Assembly: GCA_018062815.1 (NCBI GenBank)
Contig: JAGORM010000002.1
Span: 92,325 to 156,324, forward strand
Length of the DNA: 64,000 nt
Direction of reading: 5' to 3'
Source of the DNA: Candidatus Levyibacteriota bacterium
Lineage (GTDB): Bacteria; Patescibacteriota; Microgenomatia; Levybacterales; GWA1-39-11
Under the pieces are notes generated by a model. It worked only from the letters and a program-made list of their open reading frames with translations. It was not told the DNA's origin and ran no database searches. Position numbers and translations under genes: made by a program. Shown piece after piece: positions 1,830-51,156 of the stretch. How positions within the stretch are numbered: the first letter of the stretch is position 1; each line of letters opens with the position of its first letter.

Positions 1830-2576
1830 TTAGAGGAGGAAGATAATAATTCCACCTATTACTGTTATTACAATTCCGCCAATGATTCCGACCGTAGCTC
1901 CTATGGATCCACTAGGAGGGATAGTAGGTTGAATGGGCTGGCTAGTCGGAATAACAGGGTTGTTAACTATTGGCGGTGGGTTATTCACTGGAGGATTAAC
2001 CACAACCGGTGTTTTTGTAGGCGATGGAGTAGGAGTAGGCGTCAGTGTAGGAGTAGGCGTAGGAGTAGGTATTTTTGTTGGTGTAGGTGAGGGAGTAGGA
2101 GTAGGCGTCAGTGTAGGAGTAGGCGTAGGAGTGCTTACAGGAATAGTAGGGGTTGGGGTTGCCGTTGGAGGTGGAGGGGTGCAAGAACTGGTAGCACTTC
2201 CAACGCCACTGGGTCCGCATGTATTTTTTGCTATAACCTCACATCTGTATGATTTTCCTTCCTCTGGTTGGAATGTGATAGAAGTTGCCGTGGTGTTGCC
2301 TGCGAGTAATTGTGTATTTGTTGACAGGTCTATAATCTTATAATCATATGATGTTGCCCCCGATACCGCGTTCCATGAGCATTTTCCCGCATCAACTGGA
2401 CATGCATTAGGGGCTTGAGAGATGCGTTGAGGTGGCTGGGGTGTAGTTATTTTTTGAATAAGAAAAACCAGTGTCGGAATAACAATCACTAATGTAACGA
2501 TTCCTATAATAAGTATTTTTTTCTTTAGTTTTGTATTCATATTATTGACATATTCCGCTATAAATTGGCAAACCAT
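1830..2576 (-). CDS. surface protein with an N-terminal TM helix, an FN3-like domain, a Pro/Thr-rich repeat linker and a C-terminal hydrophobic anchor
   Basis: N-term MNTKLKKKILIIGIVTLVIVIPTLVF (likely true start near 2540). The linker has PTPTPTLTPTPTPSPT repeated. The C-terminal IGGIVITVIGGIIIFLL is hydrophobic. Confidence 0.55.
   Translation of the reverse strand: MVCQFIAEYVNNMNTKLKKKILIIGIVTLVIVIPTLVFLIQKITTPQPPQRISQAPNACPVDAGKCSWNAVSGATSYDYKIIDLSTNTQLLAGNTTATSITFQPEEGKSYRCEVIAKNTCGPSGVGSATSSCTPPPPTATPTPTIPVSTPTPTPTLTPTPTPSPTPTKIPTPTPTPTLTPTPTPSPTKTPVVVNPPVNNPPPIVNNPVIPTSQPIQPTIPPSGSIGATVGIIGGIVITVIGGIIIFLL
2030..2160. repeat. approximately 60-bp tandem direct repeat (2 copies) encoding the PTPTPTLTPTPTPSPT linker
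   Basis: gtaggagtaggcgtcagtgtaggagtaggcgtaggagt recurs about 60 bp apart within the CDS. Confidence 0.6.
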
Positions 2577-3549
2577 TTATATTAGACACGCTACAAATAC
2601 CGCTTATACAATCCGTAGGTACAGAGCATGAAGATCCTGGTTTTCCAACATTACTTTTAGGAGTTGGGGTAGCTGTTGGAGCTCTTGTTGGAGTAACTGT
2701 TGGTTGATTCCCCGTTGGGGTTATTGGTGTCTGATCTCCTGAAGTGGGAGAAGGAATAGGTGTGCTTATTTTAGGTGTAGGAGTAGGTATTACGCTTGAT
2801 CCGCCATCACAGCCGATACAGGTAACAATTACGCCTGCAGGAGTTCCAGGTACAGGACATGCTAACGTAGGCGTAGGAGTTCCAGGTACGTTTGTTGGCG
2901 GTGGGGTATTTCCAGGGGGTTGAGTTACTCCTACGGTAGGAGTAGGTATTTTTGTAGGCGATGGTGTTGGGGTAGATTCTGTTGTTGGTGTAGGCGAGGG
3001 TGTTGGAGGAGTTTCACAGTCAAAATAGAAAAAGAATGACATTTCCGTTCCGTTCCTACTTTTTATATTGTCTGACTGTGTTGCGTCTGGAAGATATACA
3101 TCAGGTGTCCCATCGCCTGCATACACCCTACATGTACCGTTAAATGATCCACCTGAGAAATAAGCGTTTACCTGAAGATTATCATCGCAGCCACCTGAAC
3201 TGCACCCAATTGTTTGGATGTCCCCATATGAGGCTGTGCCATTAAATGGTGAAGTAGTAGTTGAGTCTGATCTTTTTAAACATTTTACCTCGCTGGTGCA
3301 GGCAGGGGCTCCAACATCAATTCTAAAGACTTGATTTGGAGGAATATTCTTACCAGTTATCTTGAAATTAAGCCCAACAGAGTCTACAAAGTTTACTCCC
3401 GGGTAAATTTCAGATACAGGTACATTTCCTGCCCCTGGGCAAGTGTCCCAACTCTTTGCGCAAGCAACATTGTCAGAGGTGTTTATGCCAATAAAATAGA
3501 GTGCTATAAAAAATACGACCCCTATAAATATTTTTTTAATTCTGTTCAT
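2542..3549 (-). CDS. secreted protein with a signal peptide, Pro/Thr-rich linkers and a Cys-rich C-terminal knot
   Basis: N-term MNRIKKIFIGVVFFIALYFIG has the hydrophobic h-region of a signal peptide. PTPSPT tracts follow. The C-term reads SSCSVPTDCISGICS...SGICQ. Confidence 0.5.
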   Translation of the reverse strand: MNRIKKIFIGVVFFIALYFIGINTSDNVACAKSWDTCPGAGNVPVSEIYPGVNFVDSVGLNFKITGKNIPPNQVFRIDVGAPACTSEVKCLKRSDSTTTSPFNGTASYGDIQTIGCSSGGCDDNLQVNAYFSGGSFNGTCRVYAGDGTPDVYLPDATQSDNIKSRNGTEMSFFFYFDCETPPTPSPTPTTESTPTPSPTKIPTPTVGVTQPPGNTPPPTNVPGTPTPTLACPVPGTPAGVIVTCIGCDGGSSVIPTPTPKISTPIPSPTSGDQTPITPTGNQPTVTPTRAPTATPTPKSNVGKPGSSCSVPTDCISGICSVSNINGLPIYSGICQ

Positions 3550-3550
3550 A

Positions 3551-4405
3551 TCATCTTGAACTGTCTATGTACTGATTTACAGTATCATACTTTGAATTAT
3601 TTGCTTCTTTAACTTGAGCTAATATAATAGATCCGCCTGGGGATACTAAAACTTGAGATGTTTGACCTGGTTTAAGCATAAAAAATGCATCTTTAAATAA
3701 CGGATTCCAACTTGAATTTTTAGTTACATATTCATTTGTGAAAAGCTTTATTGTTGGGTCAAAGCTTGCAGAATTTTTAATTTGATTATATGCTTCTTCT
3801 AAGCTTTCTCCTTGTGTTGTGAGTGCACGAATTTGATTGAGAGTGTCTACGGCCTCACTTGCGTCTTTATCATAGGTGTCACTAAGTGGATTTTTAAAAA
3901 CGCTCACAAAATCTATAGTTCTTGAGTTAACAACCTGTTTTTCTAAACTATCCTCAGTTTTATTTTGAAGTGTTTGGTAGCTAGCGTCTTCGGTGGAGGA
4001 AATTTTAGAATTTGAAATTCCTGCTTTAATTGCTGCCTGTCTAATCTGAATGTTTTCTGCCGCGGCAGCGCGCAGTTTTGGATCGTTTTTTGCCTGATCG
4101 TAGTATGGTCCCCATATTTTTTTCATTTCACTATCTATTTCTGCTTTTGTTAAGGATGATGTAAGAGACTTTTCTTCAACGCTTACAGTGTTTTGGGTTT
4201 GGGTATTCAATTGATTAGATAAAAACAAAAAGGCGCCAACTGGTACTATAACAAGAAATCCAAGTATAACTCCTAACACATAAAACTTATTTGGCGAAAA
4301 TTTTTTATAAGACGGTGGATGAATATTTGCAGTATTCTCCATCTGAAGGTTTCTTTGCTGAATATATTTTTCGTATCTGTCTTTAAATTGATTTTGTGGA
4401 TCCAT
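3551..4405 (-). CDS. membrane-anchored protein with a degenerate PpiC-type (parvulin/SurA-like) C-terminal domain
   Basis: Single TM (FYVLGVILGFLVIVPVGAFLFL). C-term FMLKPGQTSQVLVSPGGSIILAQVKE loosely matches the parvulin FxLKPGEISxPVxTxxGYHIIKV. Confidence 0.4.
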   Translation of the reverse strand: MDPQNQFKDRYEKYIQQRNLQMENTANIHPPSYKKFSPNKFYVLGVILGFLVIVPVGAFLFLSNQLNTQTQNTVSVEEKSLTSSLTKAEIDSEMKKIWGPYYDQAKNDPKLRAAAAENIQIRQAAIKAGISNSKISSTEDASYQTLQNKTEDSLEKQVVNSRTIDFVSVFKNPLSDTYDKDASEAVDTLNQIRALTTQGESLEEAYNQIKNSASFDPTIKLFTNEYVTKNSSWNPLFKDAFFMLKPGQTSQVLVSPGGSIILAQVKEANNSKYDTVNQYIDSSR

Positions 4406-4476: not shown

Positions 4477-5439
4477 TTAATCACCTCTTCTTGTTGCAAA
4501 TCCGCGAAGAAGTATGTTTAAATCCCGTGGATCCATGACTCCGTTATCATTTAAGTCAGAAAGTACTTTATATTCGTTTGTGCAATCTGTTCCAGCATAG
4601 CATGACAAAAGAATAGAATAGTCATTTATGTCTAATAAATTATTTGAAGATCCTTCTGATTGAATATCACCTGAGACCACCACAACAGGAGGTGTAGTCG
4701 CGGTTATACTTTGTGATAACTGATGAACTCCGGGTATAGTTTTTGTGAGTGAGTTTGCGGCGCGCACTTTTATGGTGTAAGGTCCGCTTGCAATATTATT
4801 AAATATTGCGTTTCCCTTATATACACCATTGTCATAGGTAAGTGTTGCGGTTGTTTTTCCTGCTTCAGTATTTTGCTCATCATATGCGTATACATCAAAT
4901 GCTCTGGAGGGGTGTTGCGGTTGGTTATTTTCTCCCAATGCAGTGTTTGAGCCAATTCCAGGAAGGGAAACTGCAAGAGTTATTGCTGCACCCTGTGATG
5001 TGCTCGGTGTTGTACTTAAAGCAGGAGAGGGTATGGGTGTTGCTGTAGGATTTGGAGTTGGAGTAACCATAATGCACTGAATGCAGTTGGTTTGATTTGG
5101 ATTATTAGGCGAGTCTTGGCAGGATTTTGCGAAACTTCCCTGATAGGGACCAGAGGGAATGTACTGCCAACATGAATATTGTCCGACTTCACAGGAGACA
5201 TGGTCGGTTCCGCCGCAATACTTAACTAATGTAGCGGAAGAAGGATTTTCGGATTCTGAGTTAGTTGTTGTAAAGTCCACGGAAGCTGCACGTTGACGGA
5301 TATCTTGCTGTTGGTTTGTAAGCATAACCGTTACCGGGATAGAAAGAATAAGAACAACAATTATCAGAGACCCTATCACCCTTTTTTTGGAAGAAAGGAA
5401 AAGTTCTTCAAAAATACTGCCAAAAGAGCTTGGATTCAT
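4477..5439 (-). CDS. secreted Pro/Thr-rich protein with a C-terminal dockerin-like Ca-binding repeat
   Basis: N-terminal TM is followed by LTNQQQDIRQRAAS. The C-terminus has GDIQSEGSSNNLLDINDYSILLSCYAG and SDLNDNGVMDPRDLNILLRGF. The second segment fits the dockerin loop D-x-N-x-N-G-x-x-D-x-x-D-L-x-x-L-L. Confidence 0.55.
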   Translation of the reverse strand: MNPSSFGSIFEELFLSSKKRVIGSLIIVVLILSIPVTVMLTNQQQDIRQRAASVDFTTTNSESENPSSATLVKYCGGTDHVSCEVGQYSCWQYIPSGPYQGSFAKSCQDSPNNPNQTNCIQCIMVTPTPNPTATPIPSPALSTTPSTSQGAAITLAVSLPGIGSNTALGENNQPQHPSRAFDVYAYDEQNTEAGKTTATLTYDNGVYKGNAIFNNIASGPYTIKVRAANSLTKTIPGVHQLSQSITATTPPVVVVSGDIQSEGSSNNLLDINDYSILLSCYAGTDCTNEYKVLSDLNDNGVMDPRDLNILLRGFATRRGD

Positions 5440-5517
5440 ATACTAATCATAGGTAGATTTTTTTATTTTTGCAAGACCTTGGGATTTGCTGTTTTATAAA
5501 AGTGCAGAATTTTAGAT

Positions 5518-5964
5518 TTAGTTTTCTGTAGTTGAAACAGTACAGGATGCAAGAGCGTTAGGTAAATTGTTCTCCATAGGTTTAGACGGATCAAGAAGTG
5601 ATATTTTCCAAGTAGTTTCAGGTTTATCAAATTTATAGATTATTGTGTCTTCCTTTTTTTCAACAATTGAATATCCATCTGCGGGTTCAATGTATGGTTC
5701 AGGTGCATATGGGTATGAGACTACTAAAAGTTCAGATGTTTCCCCCGGTCTTATTGTTCCAGGCGTAAAGATACATGCGGGTGTACTATCTGCTGCTTGT
5801 TGTCTGACATCTTGCTGCTGATTTGCAAGATAAAATGTTAAGGGGACAGCACCTAACACAAACAATACAAAAAACACGCTAATTGTTCTTTGCGGAGAGG
5901 AAAATAGTGCTTTTCCTAGTACATACCCAATTGAGCGTTTTTCAACAACTTTCATTCCATACAT
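5518..5964 (-). CDS. small secreted protein sharing the TM-NQQQDxRQxAA N-terminal module with the 4477..5439 protein
   Basis: The N-terminus reads VFFVLFVLGAVPLTFYLANQQQDVRQQAAD. Confidence 0.45.
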   Translation of the reverse strand: MYGMKVVEKRSIGYVLGKALFSSPQRTISVFFVLFVLGAVPLTFYLANQQQDVRQQAADSTPACIFTPGTIRPGETSELLVVSYPYAPEPYIEPADGYSIVEKKEDTIIYKFDKPETTWKISLLDPSKPMENNLPNALASCTVSTTEN

Positions 5965-6075: not shown

Positions 6076-6648
6076 ATGGTACTTTCAGACAGAGATATAA
6101 AAAAAGCATTAGAGGAGAAACGAATTGTTATCTCTCCCCAGCCTGACATATTAACTCAACTAGGATCTTGCTCAATAGATTTACGATTAGGAAATTTGTT
6201 TAGAATTTTCGATCACAGTAAGTATCCGTTCATAGATCCATACAAAAAAGATTACGGTGCAGATATAACACGTGAAGTAGAACTTAATGGTACAGACCAG
6301 TTTATTATGCAACCTGGAGATTTTGTGCTTGCCGTAACAATGGAAAAAGTAACAATTCCTGATAATCTGATGGGTAGATTAGAGGGTAGATCGTCATTGG
6401 GGAGGATGGGAATAGTTGTTCATTCGACCGCATCTATTTTTGATCCGGGGTGGAATGGGAAATGTGTTTTAGAATTGGGTAATTTAGGGCGTATGGCTGT
6501 TGCCCTTACTCCTGGGATGAGAATTTGTGCAATGACCTTTGAAGAGTTAAGTTCGCCCTCAGAAATGCCATACAGTAAAAGACAGGACGCAAAATACGTT
6601 ATGCAAGAAGGGCCAATAGAAAGCAAAATTGCGCAAGAGAGCCAGTAG
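6076..6648 (+). CDS. dcd: dCTP deaminase
   Basis: MVLSDRDIKKALEEKRIVISP...SIDLRLGNLFRIF...SSLGRMGIVVH...FDPGWNG matches Dcd/dUTPase-fold signatures. Confidence 0.8.
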   Translation: MVLSDRDIKKALEEKRIVISPQPDILTQLGSCSIDLRLGNLFRIFDHSKYPFIDPYKKDYGADITREVELNGTDQFIMQPGDFVLAVTMEKVTIPDNLMGRLEGRSSLGRMGIVVHSTASIFDPGWNGKCVLELGNLGRMAVALTPGMRICAMTFEELSSPSEMPYSKRQDAKYVMQEGPIESKIAQESQ

Positions 6649-6710: not shown

Positions 6711-7406
6711 ATGCATAATACTATTATGAAATACAATATAAATCTTGATATATCACTTAAAGAAAACCCATATCCTGGTTCTTATATAGCTCTTGAAGGA
6801 ATAGATGGAAGTGGGAAAACAACTCAGGTAGAATTGCTTGCAAAATACTTTAGGTCTCTTGGAAAAGAAGTAGTAACAACCAGGGAGCCAAGAAAAGAAG
6901 GACTAATTGGTGATTTAGTTCAGAAGGTGCTTTTAGGAAAGGAAAAATTACCCTCGGTTTCGCTACAGTATCTTTTCTCCGCGGATAGATCAGCGCACCA
7001 CGAAGAACTTGTAGAGCCGTCTTTAAAAGAGGGGAAGATTGTAATCTCTGATAGATGTTTTTGGTCGGCAATTGTTTATGGAATACTTGACAGAACAGGC
7101 GGTAAGTATGACACTAACGTTTCTGATTTATTATTAATTTCACAATCAATTCTTTCTATGTATCATCAATTCATCATCCCTGACCATACGTTTTATCTTA
7201 GAATTTCTCTTGAAACGGCAATTAAAAGACTGAGTGGGAAAAAAGAAACTGTAGAAATTTATGAGGAAAAAAGTAAACTTGAAAAACTTATTACTGGGTA
7301 TGACTTCTTAGAGAAAAAGTTTTCAGATAACATAATAACGTTAAGTGGTGAAGGGGATACTGGTATGGTCACAAAACGTATTTTAGAAAGGATTAAAGAT
7401 AAGTGA
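6711..7406 (+). CDS. tmk: thymidylate (dTMP) kinase
   Basis: P-loop IALEGIDGSGKTTQVELLAKYF, then DRCFWSAIVYG (the DR(Y/F)xxS motif). Confidence 0.85.
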   Translation: MHNTIMKYNINLDISLKENPYPGSYIALEGIDGSGKTTQVELLAKYFRSLGKEVVTTREPRKEGLIGDLVQKVLLGKEKLPSVSLQYLFSADRSAHHEELVEPSLKEGKIVISDRCFWSAIVYGILDRTGGKYDTNVSDLLLISQSILSMYHQFIIPDHTFYLRISLETAIKRLSGKKETVEIYEEKSKLEKLITGYDFLEKKFSDNIITLSGEGDTGMVTKRILERIKDK

Positions 7407-7942
7407 TTTTAGAACCCAAGTTGCTTTTACAATTAGTTAAGAAAAATAAACTTGTTGAAAATCTTGCGGATAGGGAGTTAACAAATCCAGAGGGTGCAGG
7501 ATTTGATCTTCGAATTGGTAAGGTTTTTAAACTTCAGGGAGACTCATTTTTAGGAATTGATGAGCGTAAAACTCCAGATGTAAAACTTGTTGCAGAATTT
7601 AATCCTAAAAAGATATCTAAAATTGTTATAAAGCCGGGAGAAATTTATCTGACAGAAACATATGAAAAATTTAATATGCCGCTTGATTTAGTCGGGATTC
7701 TAAAGCCCAGAACAACACTTCAAAGGTCGGGAATTATTGCGCGTATGGCAATTGTTGACCCGGGGTATAGTGGGACGGTTCATCCGCTTTTATATAATGC
7801 CGGACCGGCAACTGTGACAATTGAAATGGGTGCGCGGTATATTTTTGCAATGTTTATGGAAATAAAAGGAAAAGGAAGTCAGTATAGAGGGCAATGGCAA
7901 GGTGGACGCGTCGCCGCAACAAAAAAAGAGAGACAAGTTTAA
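7403..7942 (+). CDS. second dCTP deaminase/dUTPase-fold protein; possibly a Dcd-type dUTP diphosphatase
   Basis: GAGFDLRIGKVF...KPRTTLQRSGIIARMAIVDPGYSG shows the Dcd/Dut family jelly-roll motifs but is distinct from 6076..6648. The start overlaps the tmk stop by 4 bp. Confidence 0.65.
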   Translation: MILEPKLLLQLVKKNKLVENLADRELTNPEGAGFDLRIGKVFKLQGDSFLGIDERKTPDVKLVAEFNPKKISKIVIKPGEIYLTETYEKFNMPLDLVGILKPRTTLQRSGIIARMAIVDPGYSGTVHPLLYNAGPATVTIEMGARYIFAMFMEIKGKGSQYRGQWQGGRVAATKKERQV

Positions 7943-8634: not shown

Positions 8635-9627
8635 ATGGCAAACCAAAAACATCAGGAATATCAATATTTAGACTTACTGAAAGAAGCCTTAGAGCATGGG
8701 GAACGCAAGGTTGATCGTGGGACAGATATAAAGCTGTATAGTTTGTTTGGTCGTCAAACTCGATACGACTTGTCAGAAGGATTTCCGCTTTTGACCACTA
8801 AAAAAGTTTACTGGAAGGGTGTTATTCATGAACTTGCGTGGTTTATGTCAGGCGACACAAATATTAAATATTTAGTGGATAACAACGTACATATCTGGGA
8901 CGACTACCCATACAAAATTTTTAAAACAAAAAATGCTAAATCTAAATTCACAAAAGATGAGTTTATTGAAAAAATTCGGGAGGACGCAAAATTTGCAAAA
9001 AAGTGGGGAGACCTTCCTCGGATATATGGAGAAATGTGGAGGAAATGGCCTACCCATTCGGCAAGCTCAGGGCGAGCTAAAAAACCTCGAACAATTGATC
9101 AGTTGGCCTGGGTGATGCAGGAGTTAAAAGAGGATCCAGATGCAAAAAATGCAATTGTTACTTCCTGGAATCCAGAATATATGTATACCATGGCGTTGAA
9201 AAAGGAGGCAAATAGATTTCCCATCTGCCACAACATGTATCAAGTTTCCAGGCGTGGGAACAAGTTATCATTACAGCTCTATCAAAGAAGCGCAGACTTG
9301 TTCTTAGGAGTTCCATTTAATATTGCTTCATATTCTCTGCTTATCATTATTCTTGCAAACATTATGGATTTAGAACCCGGAGAATTTATTCATACCTTTG
9401 GAGACGCGCATATTTATGAAAATCATATACCACAGGTAAAAGAACAGTTAACTCGTGTGCCAAGACCTTTTCCAAAGATAAAAATAAATCGGAAAATAAA
9501 ATCTATTGATGATTTTAAAGCAGAGGATATTGAGCTTTTAGAATATGATCCGTATCCTGCCATGAAAGCAGAGCTGACAGTTGCGGGAGGTCTGTATGAC
9601 AAAAAAACCGGCAAAATGGCCGGATGA
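8635..9627 (+). CDS. thyA: thymidylate synthase (ThyA), long form with an about 50-aa insertion
   Basis: LLTTKKVYWKGVIHELAWFMSGDTNIKYL, the active-site region FPICHNMYQ, and DLFLGVPFNIASYSLL. Confidence 0.85.
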   Translation: MANQKHQEYQYLDLLKEALEHGERKVDRGTDIKLYSLFGRQTRYDLSEGFPLLTTKKVYWKGVIHELAWFMSGDTNIKYLVDNNVHIWDDYPYKIFKTKNAKSKFTKDEFIEKIREDAKFAKKWGDLPRIYGEMWRKWPTHSASSGRAKKPRTIDQLAWVMQELKEDPDAKNAIVTSWNPEYMYTMALKKEANRFPICHNMYQVSRRGNKLSLQLYQRSADLFLGVPFNIASYSLLIIILANIMDLEPGEFIHTFGDAHIYENHIPQVKEQLTRVPRPFPKIKINRKIKSIDDFKAEDIELLEYDPYPAMKAELTVAGGLYDKKTGKMAG

Positions 9628-9662: not shown

Positions 9663-10037
9663 ATGAATACGAAAATACATTCATTTACAGACTTGAATGC
9701 TTGGAAAGAGTCTCACATGTTAGTACTTCAAATATATAAAATAACAAAAGAATTTTCTGCGGATGAAAAGTTTGGACTTGTAGACCAGATGAGAAGATGT
9801 GCGGTGTCAATTAGTAGTAATATTGCGGAAGGATTTTTCAGGAGAACAAAAAAAGAAAAAGCCCAATTTTTCTATATGGCACTTGGATCTTTAACAGAAC
9901 TTCAGAATCAGCTATTAATCTCTCGTGATTTAACGTATATTGATAACAAGACGTTTACGGATTTAGCCGAGCAAACAGTAACCATAAGTAAACTTGTTAA
10001 TGGTTTGGTGAAGAGTTCGAGGAATTTTAATACATAA
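9663..10037 (+). CDS. four-helix-bundle protein (23S rRNA intervening-sequence protein family)
   Basis: DLNAWKESHMLVLQIYKITKEF...DQMRRCAVSISSNIAEGF is the hallmark pattern of that family. Confidence 0.65.
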   Translation: MNTKIHSFTDLNAWKESHMLVLQIYKITKEFSADEKFGLVDQMRRCAVSISSNIAEGFFRRTKKEKAQFFYMALGSLTELQNQLLISRDLTYIDNKTFTDLAEQTVTISKLVNGLVKSSRNFNT

Positions 10038-10491: not shown

Positions 10492-11058
10492 ATGATACAA
10501 AATACCAGGGTTAGTATAATTGCGGCAATTGGGAAAAACAGAGAACTTGGAAAAGAAGATAGACTGCTGTGGGAAATTCCAGAGGATGCAAAATTTTTTA
10601 GAGACATGACACGCGGGCATGTGAATATTATGGGAAGGAAAACCTATGAATCTTTGCTTCACTATTACAAAGGAAAGCCCATGCCAAAAAGAGTAAGTGT
10701 TGTAGTGACTCGTGACGCAAAATATAAAGCAGCCGATGGTGTATTTGTTTTTACTGACATGAAAGAGGCGGTAGAGTTTGCCAAAAAAAAAGAGCAGGAG
10801 ATTTCTAAGATTGAAGAGTATAAGAATGCACGAGACCTAAGGTCTCTGGAGGCTGAAGTGTATGACATAGGTGGAGGACAGATTTATGCGCTTGGTCTTC
10901 CCTTTGCTGATAGATTATATCTGACATTTGTAGACGGTGAATTTCCTCAGGCAGATGCCTTTTTTCCGGAATTTCCAGAATTTACTAAAGTTGTGGGGGA
11001 GAAAAAAGGTTTAAAGGGTGAATATGATTACACATTTAAAACTTTAGAACGGGGATGA
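10492..11058 (+). CDS. folA: dihydrofolate reductase
   Basis: VSIIAAIGKNRELGKEDRLLWEIPEDAKFFRDMTRGHVNIMGRKTYES and the C-terminal DIGGGQIYALGLP. Confidence 0.85.
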   Translation: MIQNTRVSIIAAIGKNRELGKEDRLLWEIPEDAKFFRDMTRGHVNIMGRKTYESLLHYYKGKPMPKRVSVVVTRDAKYKAADGVFVFTDMKEAVEFAKKKEQEISKIEEYKNARDLRSLEAEVYDIGGGQIYALGLPFADRLYLTFVDGEFPQADAFFPEFPEFTKVVGEKKGLKGEYDYTFKTLERG

Positions 11059-11119: not shown

Positions 11120-11575
11120 ATGAAAAAGCTGAAGAAGTATGAATTTTATCCACCTCACAAGCATTTTGTGCGTTTTCTTAAGCGTGTTGAATATAAAAGA
11201 TATTTTTTGTACTTAATCCGTTGGCAATTATCAACTCCTATACTTGCACCCATTGTAGCCTGGGTAAAACATTCACCATCTATTCTTGGTACTCCTGAAG
11301 ATTGGTATGCTGCGGGAATCGCAAATCTTATAGGAGGTCTTATTTTCTTTTGGGTTGACCTTTTTATATTCAAATCTCAATCTTTGGCTACACAATGGGA
11401 AATTAAAGAAAATATTAGATGTACGGATTGCAGAAAGATTGCTCGTGGTTATAGACTAGTTAAAACACCAAAATATGACAGGACAAAAGATATAAATCCT
11501 GAATTTAGGTGTGAAAATTGTTCTATGAAAAAGTCAAAAAAATTAAGAGAAAGAGGTATTTCTACTGAAGGGTGA
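11120..11575 (+). CDS. hypothetical membrane protein with a C-terminal CxxC...CxxC zinc-ribbon
   Basis: Two predicted TM helices, then CTDCRK...CENCSMKK. Confidence 0.4.
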   Translation: MKKLKKYEFYPPHKHFVRFLKRVEYKRYFLYLIRWQLSTPILAPIVAWVKHSPSILGTPEDWYAAGIANLIGGLIFFWVDLFIFKSQSLATQWEIKENIRCTDCRKIARGYRLVKTPKYDRTKDINPEFRCENCSMKKSKKLRERGISTEG

Positions 11576-12194
11576 TCGTGAGGGGTCGAGTATCTTTAAG
11601 GATAGAGCCCTGAGTAGTATTTGTTGTCACCTTTGTTTCTTTCCCAAATGTAATACTTGCAGAAGCACTTGTTCCTTTTATCACAGTAAATGCTAATTTC
11701 CCAATACTTCCGGTCCCATTTACAGGCAAGCCGTTTGTGCTTATAACTTCTGCAAAAGTTAGCTTTCCGGGAACTGAAGTATCTGTAAATAGTGTCATAT
11801 GAGATCCGGGATTGTTTCCGAAAAGTGAATTAGTGGTTTCAGACGGAAGAATCTTAACATTTGTTATCTGTTTTGGGTCATAAAGAATTTCTGCTTGGGC
11901 ACCAGTTATAGGGGTACCTGCCGTTTCAACAATTATGTCAACGGTCGCTGATGGTGTAGTTGAGGTTGAAAGGTCTAACACTGCAGGAAAAAAAGAGACG
12001 CTAGCCGTTTTCATAACTGTTGGGGTGGGGGTAACTGTTGCAACTGTAACTGCTGGTTTATTTTGGGATCCAATCCAAATGGAAAGCCCGAGTAGTGCAA
12101 CCGTTAGAGTAACTAAAAAAGATATCAGAATTAATGTTTTTCCTGGGATACTCCTCATATATTTATTATGCCCATAAGGGCAAAAAAATTGCAA
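11562..12194 (-). CDS. secreted or membrane-anchored cohesin-like domain protein
   Basis: N-terminal TM and a PT linker, then VDIIVETAGTPITGAQAEILYDPKQITNVKI...GKLTFAEVISTNG...GSIGKLAFTVIKGT...ITFGKE. This resembles the type-I cohesin pattern (xFxYDPxxLxxxxV ... G.F.F...G.AxxxFxV). Confidence 0.45.
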   Translation of the reverse strand: MQFFCPYGHNKYMRSIPGKTLILISFLVTLTVALLGLSIWIGSQNKPAVTVATVTPTPTVMKTASVSFFPAVLDLSTSTTPSATVDIIVETAGTPITGAQAEILYDPKQITNVKILPSETTNSLFGNNPGSHMTLFTDTSVPGKLTFAEVISTNGLPVNGTGSIGKLAFTVIKGTSASASITFGKETKVTTNTTQGSILKDTRPLTITLQ

Positions 12195-18482: not shown

Positions 18483-19079
18483 TTATTTTGTGTTAATTTC
18501 CAGATTTACTTTTCCTAGTACAACATTTGGAGTTTGTGGAGAGGACGCAAAAGATGCTTGGTCAATTTTTATAATTGCGGAAGTTGTTCCCTGTGTAAGT
18601 TTTCCGGTTACTTTTGCAATTATTCCCTTCCCTTTTGGGTATGGAATTGAAGTGGGTATCAGATAAGACTGGCTAATTGTTCCTTGTTCAGGGTTGCTTT
18701 GTTTGATTCCTGCGGTGAGATTTACAGAATAGGATAAGGCAGAGGAAGGATCATTTACGGATATAATTTTAACATTACTAACTTGAAGCGGATCATACGA
18801 TAGCGCAATTGTAATTTTAGAGACGGGGATGCCATAGCTATCAAATAGTATGCTTGAGGTAAATGTGGACTGTTTATTTATGGTTATTGTGTTGGGTGAG
18901 AAAGAAACCATCATAGTAGGAGATTCTTGTTTGGGTGTTTGAGTAGGAACTATTTTTTGAGTTAATGAAGGAGGAGGGGTATTTTCATTGAGAAATACAA
19001 AAAAAACAATAAATATAAAAATAACTATAGATACTAAAAATAAAATAAGCGTCAATTTTTTTTTGAAAACACCAGTCAT
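18483..19079 (-). CDS. membrane-anchored cohesin-like domain protein
   Basis: ITIALSYDPLQVSNVKIISV...GKGIIAKVTGKLTQGTTSAIIKIDQASF resembles the cohesin pattern and the 11562..12194 protein. Confidence 0.4.
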   Translation of the reverse strand: MTGVFKKKLTLILFLVSIVIFIFIVFFVFLNENTPPPSLTQKIVPTQTPKQESPTMMVSFSPNTITINKQSTFTSSILFDSYGIPVSKITIALSYDPLQVSNVKIISVNDPSSALSYSVNLTAGIKQSNPEQGTISQSYLIPTSIPYPKGKGIIAKVTGKLTQGTTSAIIKIDQASFASSPQTPNVVLGKVNLEINTK

Positions 19080-19093
19080 ATCTTTATCTTATA

Positions 19094-21226
19094 TCATATA
19101 CATACTCCTGCGCCAGGATTGTTTGTAAAGACACAGGCAGTACCCGTTTTCATTTGTAGGCACTGATTATTTCTGGTGCAGCTTGTTACGTTTACTTCAG
19201 AGTTGGTGGATGCTGTACTGCCTGAAGTACCTGTGCAGCAGATATTTCCTTTTCCTGATTTCTGACATGAATAATTATGTCCCAATGGAGAAGCCAGAGT
19301 GCCTGATTTACACGTGTTTCCTGACTCACAGTGATAAGAGCTTGTATTGCAGTATGCGCCTGATTCTGAGGGGTCTTTGTATACACAATATGATGTTGCA
19401 GTTCCCGTACTGCTTGTACACTTAAATTCAGGGGCACAGTCGCTATTCCCATTATAACAGTGGTCGTTTTCCCTTCCTGATCCTCCCGTATTTCCTCCAC
19501 CACCTGATGAGGGAGCAACACAACTAGATTTATTTGCCATGCATTTCCCTTGCGCTTCACAATAGCGTTCAGTAAATCTACAGCAGTAAGTCTGGTTTGA
19601 GGAGTTATTTGCGTCTTTCCATCCGGGGTAGCATGCGTTATCTGAGCTTCCTCCGCAAGAGCTTCCCTGAGTTGTGCATGATTGACCTATCTGATTATCG
19701 CTGTTATTGCCGTTTTCACCGGTATTGTTTCCCGGGGGAGGATTTTCTTTTTTTTGATCATCATTTTTGGGAGGACTATTATTATTTCCAGTGTTTTCAA
19801 GACAACAAACAGAGCGAGAACTGCCATACGCGTTTGCGCATGCTAAATTTGCTTCTTGTTGCGTAGCGTTTGTGTCAGGCTTAAATCCAGTGCCACATGC
19901 CGTTGCCTGACAGGTATTCACTTTTCCAGAAGGACCTATGTTATTGCATGCGCTTGGACGGAATGTGCACTTAGCTCCATCCCAATAAGGAGTAGGGTCT
20001 TTACAGGTCTGTCCTTGAGGAGGCTGAGGGAGTGTGCCTGAGTTGTCTTGCACCCAGGGGAATTTGTTACATATCTTCATGAGACCGTTTTTAGGTGTAA
20101 AATCATAGGTTTTATCAGCACAAAGATAGACATCATAATATTTACCCGTCGCATAGGGATTTGGGGTTGATTTTGCTTTTTGATCTGTAAATAGACCCAG
20201 TTTATAGTTTTCATTTGTGGGTTGGGTTGTCATGCATATTGGCCCGTAATATCCGTTGGGATAGGAATCTGTATTAACCCCGTTTTTCTCTTTGCAGATG
20301 ACTGTGGTAGAAGATTTACCCGTGCCGGGATTTTGTTGGAAATTATTACCTTCACCTTCAAAATAAGCGCTTTTTTTAAGTGTCTCTTTTTCTCTTAAGT
20401 TAAAATTTCCTCCTGGGAAAACGCCTTGATCACCCATTATGGAATTTTTATATTCTGGGGAATTAACGGGATATCCTATCTCGTTCGGATGAGAAAGTCC
20501 AAATGTATGTCCTAGTTCATGAGCTATAGCTCCCGTGCCCTGTCTGCTAGTGGGCATTTTTTCAGAAGTACACCTATCAACGGAATTAATCGGGTCATTT
20601 TTGTAATAATATTTTTTTATTCTATTACAGTTTTTGTCCAACTCTGGGTAAATGGAGACATCTCCAATTACGGCAGTCGCAAGTTCACCATTTGCGCCCG
20701 CGTATCCTCCGCCACCCATAAATGCTACAATATTAATTGTTCCAAACTGAGGTCGTCCTATTTCTTGAAGTATATTGCCCATGCCATCTTTTTGAATACA
20801 CTCTGTCTCTCCGTTGCTGCACCAATACCATTCTGAATCTTTTTTCCCAATAACTGTTTTTACCGGTTGCAAAACAAATGTTTTCCCGTTCAATTGCTTA
20901 CCGTAATATGTGCGTATTTCATCCATTTTCTGATTAATATGATTTACTACAGCGTTATCTACTGGATAGTCTGTTGGAAAAAATACTATTGGTTGAACAG
21001 AAAAAGCATTATCCGCTATGCGAGAAGTTGTGGGCTGATTTACCTGGTTTGGGTTGCGAGTTAAACTATTTAAAAAAGAAAGTCCTCCAAACGGAACAAA
21101 GATTGCTATCGCAACGGTTGCAAGTGTGAGGAGAGACAAAAAACCTGAGGACTTATTTATTGTTTTATTGCTAGGTTTAATAAAAGAAGTTTTCATAAAA
21201 TAGGTTTGTTTTAAGAAATCACACAT
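19094..21226 (-). CDS. secreted zinc metalloprotease of the metzincin type with a long Cys/Gly/Asn-rich C-terminal region
   Basis: AHELGHTFGLSHPNE is the HExxHxxGxxH signature, with a downstream SIMGD Met-turn candidate. There is an N-terminal TM/signal. The roughly 300-aa C-terminal tail has many Cys, with N/G/S-rich low-complexity stretches. Confidence 0.6.
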   Translation of the reverse strand: MCDFLKQTYFMKTSFIKPSNKTINKSSGFLSLLTLATVAIAIFVPFGGLSFLNSLTRNPNQVNQPTTSRIADNAFSVQPIVFFPTDYPVDNAVVNHINQKMDEIRTYYGKQLNGKTFVLQPVKTVIGKKDSEWYWCSNGETECIQKDGMGNILQEIGRPQFGTINIVAFMGGGGYAGANGELATAVIGDVSIYPELDKNCNRIKKYYYKNDPINSVDRCTSEKMPTSRQGTGAIAHELGHTFGLSHPNEIGYPVNSPEYKNSIMGDQGVFPGGNFNLREKETLKKSAYFEGEGNNFQQNPGTGKSSTTVICKEKNGVNTDSYPNGYYGPICMTTQPTNENYKLGLFTDQKAKSTPNPYATGKYYDVYLCADKTYDFTPKNGLMKICNKFPWVQDNSGTLPQPPQGQTCKDPTPYWDGAKCTFRPSACNNIGPSGKVNTCQATACGTGFKPDTNATQQEANLACANAYGSSRSVCCLENTGNNNSPPKNDDQKKENPPPGNNTGENGNNSDNQIGQSCTTQGSSCGGSSDNACYPGWKDANNSSNQTYCCRFTERYCEAQGKCMANKSSCVAPSSGGGGNTGGSGRENDHCYNGNSDCAPEFKCTSSTGTATSYCVYKDPSESGAYCNTSSYHCESGNTCKSGTLASPLGHNYSCQKSGKGNICCTGTSGSTASTNSEVNVTSCTRNNQCLQMKTGTACVFTNNPGAGVCI

Positions 21227-21264: not shown

Positions 21265-21780
21265 TTAGCTACAGTTTGTTTTTTCAAATTCCTTTTCTGC
21301 TTTTATTGTTCCCCCTGTCAAATCATTCCCTGATGCAGTGCCGCCTTCATAAAGAATTACTTGCCAGGATTTAGTATTAAATCCATCTGTATTATCCAAC
21401 ACCAAATCATTCACTTGAACGTTTTGTTGATTTGGTTCGAAAGAGTTATAGATGTTTTCATTTATGGTTACCGGCGTAAAAATTTCTCCATTTTTGATTT
21501 CTATTTTGTAGTGTCCATTGGCTGTTCCATGAAACGCAAGGGTAACATTTGAGGTATTATTTGTGCTGTCACACTGTACGCTTGAGGGGAGTTCTATTCT
21601 CCAGCTACTGGAAGGAGTTGCCTGCGGAGATCCAGTATCATTTGCATTTCCATTATTTTTCTTACTGTTTTCTGCCTGAAATAAAAACTGTCCACCTACA
21701 AGTAAAAATGCACCAACAATGACTATAAATATAATAAGAAATTCAATTTCGCCCCTGGTAGTTTTTAATAATTGCTTCAT
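21265..21780 (-). CDS. TadE-like pilin-like (pseudopilin) secreted protein
   Basis: N-term TTRGEIEFLIIFIVIVGAFLLVGG has a Gly followed by Glu at +5 then a hydrophobic helix. This is the class III (prepilin-type) signal as in TadE/TadF. Confidence 0.4.
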   Translation of the reverse strand: MKQLLKTTRGEIEFLIIFIVIVGAFLLVGGQFLFQAENSKKNNGNANDTGSPQATPSSSWRIELPSSVQCDSTNNTSNVTLAFHGTANGHYKIEIKNGEIFTPVTINENIYNSFEPNQQNVQVNDLVLDNTDGFNTKSWQVILYEGGTASGNDLTGGTIKAEKEFEKTNCS

Positions 21781-22811
21781 GGTGTCGGAGTAAGGTTTGT
21801 GCTACCTCCTGTTTCCTCGCAGATCTTGTCCGCAATCTGCCCATAAATTGCCTTAATATCCTCAGGTTTTGTTGTTTTATAAAATGAATTGGGTGAGGCA
21901 ACAGCTTGCATCATGGTTGTAAGCTTGCTTTCAAACGGTCCATCTGTCTTTGGATCAAATACCAGAATCGAGAACACTCTGACATTTTTTCCATTTATGT
22001 TTTTTAGTGCTTGTATTTGTTGGGCAATTTGAGGATTTGTGGTCGGATCCTGATCCGCATCAAAGCAACGGCACGTTCCGGTTTGGTACGCACACATTGG
22101 ATATCTAGCGCTGGAAAAAGATGAGCATGCTGTTGCTGTTGGTACTCCAACACCGTCTCCTTCAGGAATACCATCAGAAATAAAAACCAGATTAAATGAA
22201 TTGTCTTTAAATTTAGGATCAGAAACTGCTTTTGTTAGATCCTCAAGCTCTGCTGCAAAAGCGGTGCGCGTATTAGTTCCGCCTGAGGCTACCAACTGAT
22301 TCACGGCTGCATTAAATTGTGATTTGTTGTTTTTATAAAAATCAATTTCAACCGGTCGGGAAGTTGCTGTTGAGCCTGTATCACTTGAGCTATAACGCCT
22401 AAGACCTGTGATAGAATCATTCGTAAAATTGCTTGCAAAGTCTTTAAGTGAGGATTTAATTATTTGTATTTTATTACCGCGTTCCATTGAGCCTGATGTA
22501 TCAACAAGAAAGTCAATAGCAGCACGGTTACTACATGCTGCAAATCTTATGGTTTTTAGCTGTAGCGCATTTTTTTGTGTTGAGTTTTCGCGGATTGGTT
22601 CACCTATGACATTACTACCCGATTCAGACAGCTTAAATTGAGGACCACCAGAAACCAGAAGAAAAGCACCAAATATTATGACTCCAATAAGTAAATAAAG
22701 CGCAACTTCTCCGCGTTGCCAGAAGAGAAAACTCTTTTTTAGTGTGTGTTTTGATAAATTTGAGGATTTTTTTTTCTTTGAGTTTTTATGGGGAATAGAT
22801 TTTTTCTTCAC
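21777..22811 (-). CDS. von Willebrand factor A domain protein with a TadE-like pilin-type N-terminus (TadG-like putative pilus-tip adhesin)
   Basis: N-term QRGEVALYLLIGVIIFGAFLLVSGG is paralogous to the upstream protein's N-terminus. The MIDAS motif reads FLVDTSGSMERG. It overlaps the previous gene by 4 bp. Confidence 0.55.
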   Translation of the reverse strand: MKKKSIPHKNSKKKKSSNLSKHTLKKSFLFWQRGEVALYLLIGVIIFGAFLLVSGGPQFKLSESGSNVIGEPIRENSTQKNALQLKTIRFAACSNRAAIDFLVDTSGSMERGNKIQIIKSSLKDFASNFTNDSITGLRRYSSSDTGSTATSRPVEIDFYKNNKSQFNAAVNQLVASGGTNTRTAFAAELEDLTKAVSDPKFKDNSFNLVFISDGIPEGDGVGVPTATACSSFSSARYPMCAYQTGTCRCFDADQDPTTNPQIAQQIQALKNINGKNVRVFSILVFDPKTDGPFESKLTTMMQAVASPNSFYKTTKPEDIKAIYGQIADKICEETGGSTNLTPTP

Positions 22812-50112: not shown

Positions 50113-51156
50113 TTAGCTCATAATCCCAGTAATCATTGCTACTACTTTATTTTCCTCATTGTCTAATCCGTCTATTTTTTTTAGTTTCTTAGCGTTTGCC
50201 ATTTTTTCCCAGTTTGAGAGTATAGAGCCTTTTATGTAAGCATCTATAACATGAGGATGAATGTAGTATTTTCTGCAGGTATTAGGTTTATTTCGCAAGT
50301 GACTTGCTACTTTTTTTACAATTTCAACAATATTTTTTTTTGAATCTTCCTCTTGAGCTGGAATTCCTGCTTTGTCAAATGCCGTGGCTGCAAGAACAGT
50401 TCCTCCCCAGGTTCTAAAGTCTTTTGCTGTAATTTCTGCACCTGTTATCTCCTGAAGATATGTATTTACATCTTGGGAGGAAATAGATTGAATAATTCCT
50501 TCTTCATCTTTGTATTCAAATAGATCTTGACCGGGAAGCTCTTTGCATCTTCTTACAATTTTTGCTACTTTTTTATTTTTGATACTTACATTGTGGTATA
50601 CGCCTGACTTTCCCTTGAACTGAAAAACAATATTTGATTTATAGGAAACACTTGCGTGTTTATTCTTGAGCGTAGTAAGTCCATAGGATTTATTCTCGCG
50701 CTCGTATTCCTCGTTACCAATTCTGATTAGTGTGTTTTCAAGAAGCCAGACCACAGCAGATATTACTTTTCTTCTCTGAATTCCCATAAGTGTTAGATCC
50801 TGCTTGACGGTAGCTCTTATTTTGGGAAGATGCTGTGCAAACTCCAAGAGATGTGAAAATTTTTCTTGCTGTGAAATTTGATTCCAAAGCGGGTTGTACC
50901 TATATTGTTTTCTTCCCCGAGCGTCATATCCTGTTGCTTGAAGATGTCCGTTTGCATGAGAGCATATCCAAACATTTTTGTATGCGGGGGGTATTGCAAG
51001 TTTTTGTATTCGATCAACTACTTTTTTATCTGTAATTTTTTTTCCTTCGGTATCAAAATACTCAAACGTGTTTCTGACTCTTTTTCTTGTGTATCCAGGT
51101 TTTTTGTCCGTAGAGTATCTTAGGTTTGTATTCTTTAGGAAATCGTTATCAGTCAT
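50113..51156 (-). CDS. type IB DNA topoisomerase (poxvirus/bacterial TopIB type)
   Basis: N-term LRYSTDKKPGYTRKRVRN...IPPAYKNVWIC...GYDARGRKQYRYNP. The C-terminal RKYYIHP region is the candidate active-site Tyr. Confidence 0.7.
   Translation of the reverse strand: MTDNDFLKNTNLRYSTDKKPGYTRKRVRNTFEYFDTEGKKITDKKVVDRIQKLAIPPAYKNVWICSHANGHLQATGYDARGRKQYRYNPLWNQISQQEKFSHLLEFAQHLPKIRATVKQDLTLMGIQRRKVISAVVWLLENTLIRIGNEEYERENKSYGLTTLKNKHASVSYKSNIVFQFKGKSGVYHNVSIKNKKVAKIVRRCKELPGQDLFEYKDEEGIIQSISSQDVNTYLQEITGAEITAKDFRTWGGTVLAATAFDKAGIPAQEEDSKKNIVEIVKKVASHLRNKPNTCRKYYIHPHVIDAYIKGSILSNWEKMANAKKLKKIDGLDNEENKVVAMITGIMS

Follow-up and report, generated by a model that had tools for sequence, protein, structure and literature searches.

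Two adjacent genes in a 64,000-nt stretch of a Candidatus Levyibacteriota genome (assembly GCA_018062815.1, contig JAGORM010000002.1, positions 92,325 to 156,324; here called the window, with positions numbered from its first nucleotide) encode proteins that share an N-terminal module and have no alignable sequence beyond it. The module, a basic patch followed by a hydrophobic helix and a polar stretch of the form QQQ(D/E)(I/L/V)RQ(R/Q/H)A, is portable and sharply bounded, is under selection as a peptide, is restricted to a single lineage, Candidatus Levybacteria (Microgenomates, within the Candidate Phyla Radiation, CPR), and precedes extracellular cargo that is linked to dockerins and cohesins. 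It may be a specialised cleavable Sec-type leader feeding a cohesin-dockerin display system specific to this lineage, a reading in which our belief and our doubt are about equally balanced.

Two adjacent genes with a common N-terminus

Both genes are on the minus strand, that for a 320-aa protein (4477..5439; MBP6913295.1) lying downstream of that for a 148-aa protein (5518..5964; MBP6913296.1, Candidatus Levybacteria) across a gap of 78 bp. Their identities rest on the open reading frames (ORFs), on gene calls and on database identity, and both products are annotated "hypothetical protein". As delimited by alignment and by the profile logo described below, the module occupies residues 1-58 of the 148-aa protein (5791..5964, minus strand) and residues 1-52 of the 320-aa protein (5284..5439, minus strand). 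In the former, an n-region ending in FSSPQRT precedes a hydrophobic helix from I28 to A47 (nt 5824-5883) that contains V-P-L-T, and this is followed by NQQQDVRQQAA at residues 48-58 (nt 5791-5823). In the latter, the n-region ends in LSSKKR, the helix runs from V21 to T41 (nt 5317-5379) and contains I-P-V-T, and the polar motif is NQQQDIRQRAA at residues 42-52 (nt 5284-5316). A hydrophobic segment of 20 residues directly precedes the polar motif in each.

By BLASTP, residues 5-52 of the 320-aa protein align with residues 11-58 of the 148-aa protein (38% identity, E 3e-10), and there is no alignment between the two past residue 52/58. The common unit is larger than the polar motif, adding to it a cytoplasmic S-S-x-(K/Q)-R and the P-x-T within the helix. 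A six-frame regular-expression scan of the window found the motif at these two places only, and about 20 kb of extra flank held no more copies. The ORFs, BLASTP and the six-frame scan together confirm what had originally been noticed here, a near-identical polar motif just after the N-terminal hydrophobic helix of both proteins.

The dockerin that had been ascribed to the 320-aa protein is also supported, as a divergent domain. A hidden Markov model (HMM) built from the C-termini of module-family members matches residues 244-319 (4483..4710, minus strand) with an E-value of 7.6e-15; Pfam Dockerin_1 gives no match at E<=1. The second calcium loop (DLNDNGVMDPRD) is intact and the first is degenerate. 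The passenger of the 148-aa protein, residues 63-145 (5530..5778, minus strand), appears from alignment and an AlphaFold2 (AF2) model to be a small immunoglobulin (Ig)-like beta-sandwich, and has two invariant Cys in the alignment, C64 and C141. The model is of low confidence (predicted local distance difference test, pLDDT, 66 overall and about 60 in the helix); it has a single helix over residues 24-58, ending at A58. A Foldseek search with it returned generic Ig-like matches only, none at E<=1e-3, and neither the model nor the fold search gave any indication on cleavage. In one homologue of the 148-aa protein (P0008), this passenger is accompanied by a Pro/Thr-rich linker and a dockerin.

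Spread, consensus and boundary of the module

With a two-sequence profile as query and a cut-off of E<=1e-3, 1.84 billion cluster representatives were scanned exhaustively with HMMER; 480 of them have the module, nine at E<=1e-10, in proteins of 59 to 1144 aa. Among the matches listed, 150 of 150 match it within their first few dozen residues. The N-termini of the carriers are strikingly uniform and the remainders unrelated, a full-length alignment of 104 of them having a mean column identity of 6%. Word-index searches are weak on so short and low-complexity a module (the two-sequence profile gave no match, a 145-sequence profile six short fragments only, and the 148-aa protein its own cluster only), and the exhaustive scan alone succeeded.

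In the logo of the 150 listed matches, numbered so that the middle Gln of the QQQ run is position 0, the n-region has S-27, K-25, R-24 and T-23 (S-x-K-R-T) and leads into about 12 hydrophobic residues. The end of the helix reads A-11, I-10, P-9 (148/150), L-8, T-7 (141/150), V-6, x, L-4, x, x, and the polar part Q-1, Q0, Q+1 (149), D/E+2, I/L/V+3, R+4 (143), Q+5 (148), R/Q/H+6, A+7 (150/150) and A/S+8. There are no indels from P-9 to A+7. Information is 2.6-4.3 bits from Q-1 to A/S+8 and less than 0.7 bits from +10 on, so that conservation is at background two residues past the invariant Ala.

A second set was selected independently, from one genome per species (185,579 species), with a back-translated pattern of about 42 bits that fixed only P-x-T and QQ[DE]xRQxA. 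It comprises 84 matches in 65 loci, all of them true N-terminal modules of ORFs with no chance matches, in DNA of 34-47% G+C. Positions left free by the pattern are conserved here too (A-11, I/V-10, Q-2, Q/K-1, R/H/Q+6, A/S+8 and K/R-24, the last in 71/82 as compared with 143/150 of the profile matches), and conservation is again at background after +9. Module genes are often in tandem arrays of two or three. In 20 of the 65 loci they adjoin a cluster of dCTP-deaminase, Tmk and ThyA genes, as in the window; this adjacency is a matter of synteny and not of function.

Looser versions of the module (QQEIRSRA, QQELRSKA, QESRSRAS and QQRTRSKAS, some without P-x-T) were seen in the same loci, at L013 893-2023, L061 2227-2895 and 5291-6253, L037 3205-4236, L060 3044-4108, L035 253-1374 and L012 3504-6001. 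Their occurrence puts the minimal core at about Q-Q-[DE]-x-R-[QS]-[RK]-A, and means that the strict pattern understates the size of the family.

These distributions uphold the central idea of the original prediction, a family-specific N-terminal signal: the module stands on 480 cluster representatives with unrelated passengers, its conservation ends abruptly, and it is by no means confined to two paralogs alignable over their full lengths. The simplest alternative, that the two window genes are the residue of a recent tandem duplication and that their common N-terminus has no signal function, would suit their adjacency, their common strand and the 38% identity of the N-terminal 48 residues. 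It does not account for the failure of the alignment past residue 52/58, the many carriers with unrelated passengers, or the use of all synonymous codons described next; simple paralogy is refuted by the carriers and the codon diversity, and we regard this explanation as very improbable.

Lineage and level of selection

Where the titles of the 65 loci name a lineage, it is mostly Candidatus Levybacteria or Levyibacteriota; others read "Patescibacteria group" or simply "bacterium", and there are single "Saccharimonadales", "Parcubacteria" and "Microgenomates" titles. All of the other named module proteins that were looked up are from Levybacteria, which are placed in the Levyibacteriota, within the Microgenomates group of the Patescibacteria group. 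Many contigs that look like CPR metagenome-assembled genomes are labelled "uncultured Gammaproteobacteria bacterium" in a bulk Third Party Annotation submission (L003, L004, L007, L013, L014, L021, L022, L025-L029 and others). This label is evidently wrong, since one of them (L026) carries the same pair of genes as the window, for 148- and 319-aa proteins; the contigs have a G+C content of 34-47% and genes of the Levybacteria type.

Among the 85 distinct 30-nt versions that encode the motif, R+4 is specified by each of the six Arg codons, A+7 by each of the four Ala codons, and every Gln by both of its codons. No synonymous codon is missing from the invariant Arg, Gln, Asp/Glu and Ala positions, and therefore selection acts on the peptide and not on a DNA or RNA element or a recombination site. 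An element of the latter sort, for example a site for cassette-shuffling recombination or a regulatory RNA, might have been suspected from the tandem arrays of two or three with variable downstream parts, and from the recurrent slot beside the dCTP-deaminase/Tmk/ThyA genes. Against it stand the 85 versions with their full use of synonymous codons, to which the window copies themselves contribute (CGT for the conserved Arg in one gene, AGA in the other). The codon analysis refutes conservation at the DNA level, and the chance that this explanation is right is close to nil.

Passengers

Pfam and NCBIfam models were run on 104 full-length module proteins. Pfam gave only extracellular-type domains: Dockerin_1 (29 of 104), SdrD_B (15), CarboxypepD_reg (8), VWA (5), fn3 (5), SpaA (4), cohesin (2), CARDB (2), and malectin, GH53, CAP, CE2_N and others. 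The picture from NCBIfam is the same. Some passengers are very short and Cys-rich, with just 40-60 residues. In the window proteins and the 104 members, no Pfam or NCBIfam model covers the module N-terminus, and no NCBIfam signal or sorting-domain model recurs.

Dockerins and membrane-anchored cohesins

The link to dockerins, together with the adjacent membrane-anchored cohesins, is the strongest functional clue, and was missed in the original prediction. Classes were counted over ORFs whose C-terminus falls inside the locus, comparing module proteins with neighbours that have a plain N-terminal hydrophobic segment (plain transmembrane, TM, proteins). By the local dockerin HMM, a C-terminal dockerin is present in 47 of 64 complete module proteins vs 7 of 100 plain-TM proteins (Fisher p 2.5e-19). 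The distribution of small cohesin anchors is the reverse, 1 of 64 vs 22 of 100. These anchors are recurrent proteins of about 190-230 aa in the 65 loci, with an M(P/S)K(K/R)T start, a plain hydrophobic segment, a Pro/Thr-rich linker and a domain containing GVQLELSYDP. Being divergent, they were missed by BLAST single-linkage clustering of the neighbours, and were recognised by eye and then with Pfam and a local HMM. Pfam identifies the domain as Cohesin in seven of eight candidates tested (E 1e-11 to 5e-5), and the local cohesin-anchor HMM finds 26 strong copies in about 24 loci (L004, L009, L013, L016, L024, L027, L028, L031, L036, L037, L043, L048, L051-L055, L060, L066 and others), plus two in the window.

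The first of the window copies (11562..12158, minus strand; 198 aa as called) has a plain N-terminal TM helix from which the QQQDxRQxA motif is absent, a Pro/Thr-rich linker and a cohesin. It matches the cohesin-anchor HMM at E 3.6e-28, and Pfam Cohesin (PF00963) at E 4.9e-5, with 24.0 bits vs a cut-off of 24.1. The second (18483..19079, minus strand), also a small TM-anchored protein of 198 aa, is cohesin-like; it is a weaker assignment, made with the local HMM only (E 2.6e-12; no Pfam match at E<=0.05).

In 16 of 27 cases, a cohesin-anchor gene directly follows a gene, on its own strand, for a protein with both module and dockerin. A few module proteins carry cohesin and dockerin together, as an adaptor might, and some dockerin proteins in the same loci (L024, L061 and L064) have classical AxA signal peptides instead of the module. 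The two classes also differ just past the membrane. The cohesin anchors have their Pro/Thr-rich linker there, whereas the module proteins enter a folded or Cys-rich domain almost at once, with the first Cys at a median of 6.5 residues past A+7 (Mann-Whitney p 2e-8 relative to the cohesin anchors). A single family combining a plain TM helix, a Pro/Thr stalk and one cohesin, and often encoded just after a gene for module and dockerin, suggests, from these gene sequences, a minimal cohesin-dockerin display system in Levybacteria.

Export, processing and retention

A sequence of events that would connect these features can be proposed. The basic patch S-x-K-R-T would stay on the cytoplasmic side; after it would come an uncharged membrane helix, 20 residues long and kinked at the fixed A-I-P-x-T, and then an extracytoplasmic polar stretch, QQQ(D/E)(I/L/V)RQ(R/Q/H)A. 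Because of this succession of basic patch, uncharged helix and polar stretch, the module is predicted to insert N-in/C-out by the general Sec/signal recognition particle (SRP) route, carrying its diverse extracellular passengers with it. The passenger would most probably be cut off at or beside the invariant Ala (R-Q-R-A↓A/S), by an enzyme of the signal-peptidase-I type or a specialised paralogue reading the conserved polar stretch. The released protein would then be kept at the cell surface by its own dockerin binding a small cohesin. This cohesin, whose gene is often the next one, presumably stays in the membrane by means of a plain anchor that lacks the motif and has a Pro/Thr-rich stalk. 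We infer Sec use, cleavage and its position, and the capture of dockerin by cohesin from sequence.

Position-specific counts were taken over 224 module sequences. Ala+7 is present in 224/224; Pro does not occur at +8 (0/224), yet is found 26 times at +10 and 41 times at +12. For a cut after A+7, position -1 would be Ala in 224/224, +1 Pro in 0/224 and -3 Gln in 222/224; for a cut after +8, position -3 would be Arg, Gln or His. That conservation ends within two residues of the Ala, and that Pro is excluded at +8, suggests a processing site, as judged from the alignments. Of the features of Sec signals cut by signal peptidase I, the N-terminal position (150/150 listed matches), a basic n-region and an uncharged h-region are present. 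The polar stretch has about 10 residues; in the window, a 335-aa ORF with a classical signal peptide has a c-region (NTSDNVACA↓K) of much the same length, 9 residues. Since other dockerin proteins in the same loci use AxA leaders, the module would fill the slot of a cleavable leader, and a C-terminal dockerin suggests a released protein, on which it would make sense. The original view that this is not a classical signal-peptidase motif was half right: Gln at -3 does not fit signal peptidase I, but an invariant Ala at the putative -1 position without Pro at +1 does.

Several observations weigh against a cleavable leader, and the same ones favour a different reading, in which the module is a permanent, uncleaved type II signal anchor with QQQDIRQRA as a short helical stalk. 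The stalk would act with the conserved A-I-P-x-T helix and the cytoplasmic S-x-K-R-T to bring about lateral association in the membrane, perhaps with further copies, with the cohesin anchor or with some other membrane protein, and so organise a surface layer. The Gln at -3 (222/224) breaks the small-residue rule of signal peptidase I. The hydrophobic segment, from -22 to -3, has 20 residues with almost no charged ones and a median hydropathy of 2.58, which would suit a stable anchor. The typical h-region of a Sec signal has 7-15 residues, more in monoderms, and 20 is at the anchor-like end of the range. The AF2 helix of the 148-aa protein runs on without a break through the polar motif, to end exactly at AA (pLDDT about 60). 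Conservation is found on both sides of the membrane and within it, and the cytoplasmic S-x-K-R-T and intramembrane A-I-P-x-T exceed what a simple leader needs. Finally, neither the 65 loci nor about 85 kb of this genome revealed a dedicated peptidase, sortase or rhomboid near the module, where the original prediction had looked to a dedicated peptidase or sortase-like gene nearby. Two candidate partners were considered and rejected: RseP-type M50 and M50B peptidases are confined to a few loci, by way of synteny with rpsB-tsf-frr, and the membrane metzincin encoded beside the second cohesin gene of the window is not a conserved partner of the module, because it has no homologue in the other 65 loci. 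Two further points tell against display through dockerins. A dockerin is missing from about a quarter of the complete module proteins, among them the 148-aa one, and in several cohesin "anchors" the hydrophobic segment has an AIA- or ASA-like site close to its end, so that their permanent anchoring is likewise a presumption.

The permanent anchor has difficulties of its own. A C-terminal dockerin would be redundant on a protein that is already anchored; without a Pro/Thr stalk, VWA, GH53 and CE2 domains would sit on the membrane beneath the wall; the Cys-rich passengers of 40-60 residues resemble released peptides; the other dockerin proteins of the same loci use cleavable AxA signal peptides; and the collapse of conservation after A/S+8 with exclusion of Pro at +8 is typical of a processing site. 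An uncleaved anchor is possible, and we would put it on the less probable side.

A third reading keeps the cleavage and changes the enzyme. The module would be a true sorting signal for a dedicated enzyme or machine, an N-terminal mirror image of LPXTG, PEP-CTERM and GlyGly-CTERM, cleaved at its signature with release perhaps coupled to cohesin loading or covalent attachment. Its tripartite layout (conserved outer signature, TM helix with a helix-breaking Pro, basic cluster inside), its occurrence in one lineage only on many unrelated surface proteins, and its coexistence with ordinary signal peptides in the same genome are all consistent with this. On the other hand, no candidate enzyme recurs in the 65 loci or in the roughly 85 kb around the window copy, whereas exosortase, sortase and SipW genes often cluster with their substrates, and a sortase-like transpeptidase acting on an N-terminal signal would end up as an acyl-enzyme joined to the leader, not to the cargo. 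We consider such a signal unlikely.

The basic patch also has some superficial likeness to a twin-arginine translocation (Tat) signal, (S/T)-R-R-x-F-L-K, with S-x-K-R-T as a degenerate twin arginine and the two Arg just before the terminal Ala as "Sec-avoidance" charges. RR, however, is found in just 6.7% of modules, as against KR in 38%, SR in 16%, KK in 11% and QR in 6%, and the full consensus in 0/224. The h-region, with its 20 residues and high median hydropathy, is unlike those of Tat signals; no NCBIfam/TIGRFAM Tat-signal model matches; and neither tatA nor tatC was found in about 85 kb. The cargo, too, argues against Tat, being Cys-rich with calcium-dependent dockerins; proteins of these kinds normally fold outside the cell. 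A Tat signal was accordingly rejected, and its probability is very small indeed.

Significance

The module is not described in Pfam (2025), NCBIfam (June 2026) or the searchable literature, in which dockerins in CPR bacteria are mentioned only in passing. We regard it as a lineage-specific export or sorting signal, whose association, in a CPR lineage, with cargo ending in dockerins and with cohesins on TM anchors has so far gone undescribed. The CPR, or Patescibacteria, make up a large share of bacterial diversity and live attached to other cells; to our knowledge, almost nothing is known of how they build their surface. The module supplies a sequence tag, and with it a ready catalogue of one lineage's surface proteome (adhesin-like, VWA, lectin, CAP and Cys-rich proteins), and it points to a minimal form of cohesin-dockerin display outside the cellulose degraders. 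The invariant Ala, the two Arg and the Gln run are a testable handle for finding the processing enzyme. For annotation, hundreds of "hypothetical proteins" would become a defined class, which would justify a new curated signal-domain model.

The most far-reaching version would make the module a new class of sorting signal, an N-terminal mirror of LPXTG/PEP-CTERM: a dedicated membrane enzyme of the Levybacteria would cut QQQDIRQRA↓A and hand the cargo to the membrane cohesin, and the signal would mark the whole displayed surface proteome. We find this version doubtful. If true, a mirror-image sorting signal would define the displayed surface proteome of episymbiotic ultra-small bacteria.

Other genes in the window

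Two more genes for exported proteins are immediately downstream of the two module genes: one (2542-3549, minus strand) encodes the 335-aa Pro/Thr-rich protein mentioned above, with its classical signal peptide (NVACA↓KS), and the other (3551-4405, minus strand) a 284-aa TM-anchored protein with weak similarity to PpiC/PrsA-type rotamases. Since neither has the module, ordinary signals coexist with it in this genome. In a 248-aa protein (1830-2576, minus strand), a long Pro/Thr linker separates the N-terminal hydrophobic segment from another at the extreme C-terminus (GGIVITVIGGIIIFLL); because of the latter, the protein may be anchored at both ends, or C-terminally after cleavage of a leader.

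The metzincin-like gene (19094-21226, minus strand), directly upstream of the second cohesin-like gene, encodes a membrane-anchored protein of 710 aa with the zinc motif HELGHTFGLSH at residue 236 and a Cys-rich C-terminus; its matches to Pfam Reprolysin are below threshold. Nearby are genes for a 344-aa VWA protein (21777-22811, minus strand) and a 171-aa protein (21265-21780, minus strand), each with "R-G-E" before the N-terminal hydrophobic segment (QRGEVALYLL and TRGEIEFLII), which is reminiscent of leaders of the TadE/pseudopilin type. The 344-, 171-, 710-, 198- and 330-aa ORFs form a five-gene cluster of membrane-anchored proteins.

On the plus strand is a compact pyrimidine-nucleotide cluster (6076-6648, 6711-7406, 7403-7942, 8635-9627 and 10492-11058), in which two paralogues of the dCTP-deaminase/dUTPase fold flank a dNK/thymidylate-kinase gene, with HAD hydrolase, ThyA, NUDIX and DHFR genes after them; it adjoins module genes in 10-20 of the 65 loci. 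Inside the dCTP deaminase-Tmk-ThyA-NUDIX-DHFR cluster is a gene (9663-10037, plus strand) for a four-helix-bundle protein like the 23S-rRNA-intervening-sequence protein and bAvd (Pfam E 2e-37; the bAvd match is weak), found also at L010 1988-2362 and in four other loci. It probably does not belong to a diversity-generating retroelement, since no reverse transcriptase was found close by. Further away, 50113-51156 (minus strand) encodes a bacterial type IB topoisomerase (Pfam Topoisom_I E 7e-40, and Top1B_N_bact), an enzyme uncommon in bacteria.

Comparison with known signals and systems

The module belongs to none of the signal families with which it was compared. As a lipoprotein signal it was rejected because the lipobox L-[ASTVI]-[GAS]-C is found in 0/224 modules, and any Cys at all between -11 and +9 in just 1/224. 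The type IV prepilin/class III pattern G-[FMLIVYA]-x-x-x-E is likewise found in 0/224, and the conserved motif lies on the C-terminal side of the helix, in keeping with the original statement that this is not a prepilin motif. Both the YSIRK-G/S and the KxYKxGKxW motifs are absent (0/224), without NCBIfam/TIGRFAM matches. The SipW-dependent type (TIGR04088) gave no NCBIfam match, with the window proteins at E<=1 or the 104 members at E<=0.01, and no peptidase recurs in the 65 loci. From the signals for sortase, exosortase and rhombosortase it is set apart by its N-terminal position and mirrored order; LPXTG is found in 1/224, and no such enzyme was found in the loci or in about 85 kb.

Likenesses remain with several of these. 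The Bacteroidetes lipoprotein export signal (LES) is also a short, polar, charged motif just past a membrane-embedded signal; it decides surface exposure. It follows a lipidated Cys, however, and works in a diderm, while the module has no lipobox. The C-terminal signals LPXTG/sortase, PEP-CTERM/exosortase and GlyGly-CTERM/rhombosortase are, like the module, made of three parts, portable, lineage-specific and present in multiple copies per genome. The module differs in being N-terminal, with the order of parts mirrored and no partner enzyme found, and in that a transpeptidase acting on it would not transfer the cargo.

In the cellulosomes of Clostridium thermocellum and in non-cellulosomal cohesin-dockerin pairs, as here, dockerin-tagged secreted proteins are encoded with cohesin-bearing anchoring proteins. 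A cellulosome, though, has a multi-cohesin scaffoldin, anchored by SLH domains or sortase, in place of a single cohesin on an N-terminal TM helix and Pro/Thr stalk, and an arsenal of glycoside hydrolases in place of mostly adhesin-like or Cys-rich cargo in an ultra-small CPR bacterium. Unlike cellulosomal enzymes, the cargo here also has a conserved leader of its own.

Like the module, the SipW-dependent signals of TasA, CalY and TapA have a conserved stretch that covers the last part of the hydrophobic region together with the cleavage site (a putative one in the module). In the SipW class that stretch is read by a specialised paralogue of signal peptidase, and marks a small surface/matrix regulon. 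The SipW gene is in an operon with its substrates, whereas no peptidase gene accompanies the module in the 65 loci or in about 85 kb, and the consensus sequences are unrelated. YSIRK-G/S (TIGR01168) and KxYKxGKxW (TIGR03715) are signatures of Gram-positive surface proteins, placed within the n-region or where the h-region begins. Like the module, they are lineage-restricted signatures in an otherwise ordinary N-terminal Sec signal, occur on many different surface proteins, and presumably affect the place or manner of export, not whether a protein is exported at all. They are dissimilar in sequence and in position, theirs being at the n/h-region of cargo that is serine-rich or ends in LPXTG, and that of the module past the helix, on the outer face, with C-terminal dockerins. 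By analogy, the module would work most like these lineage-specific signal-peptide variants of monoderms (YSIRK-G/S, KxYKxGKxW and SipW-type), with a layout that mirrors the C-terminal tripartite signals.

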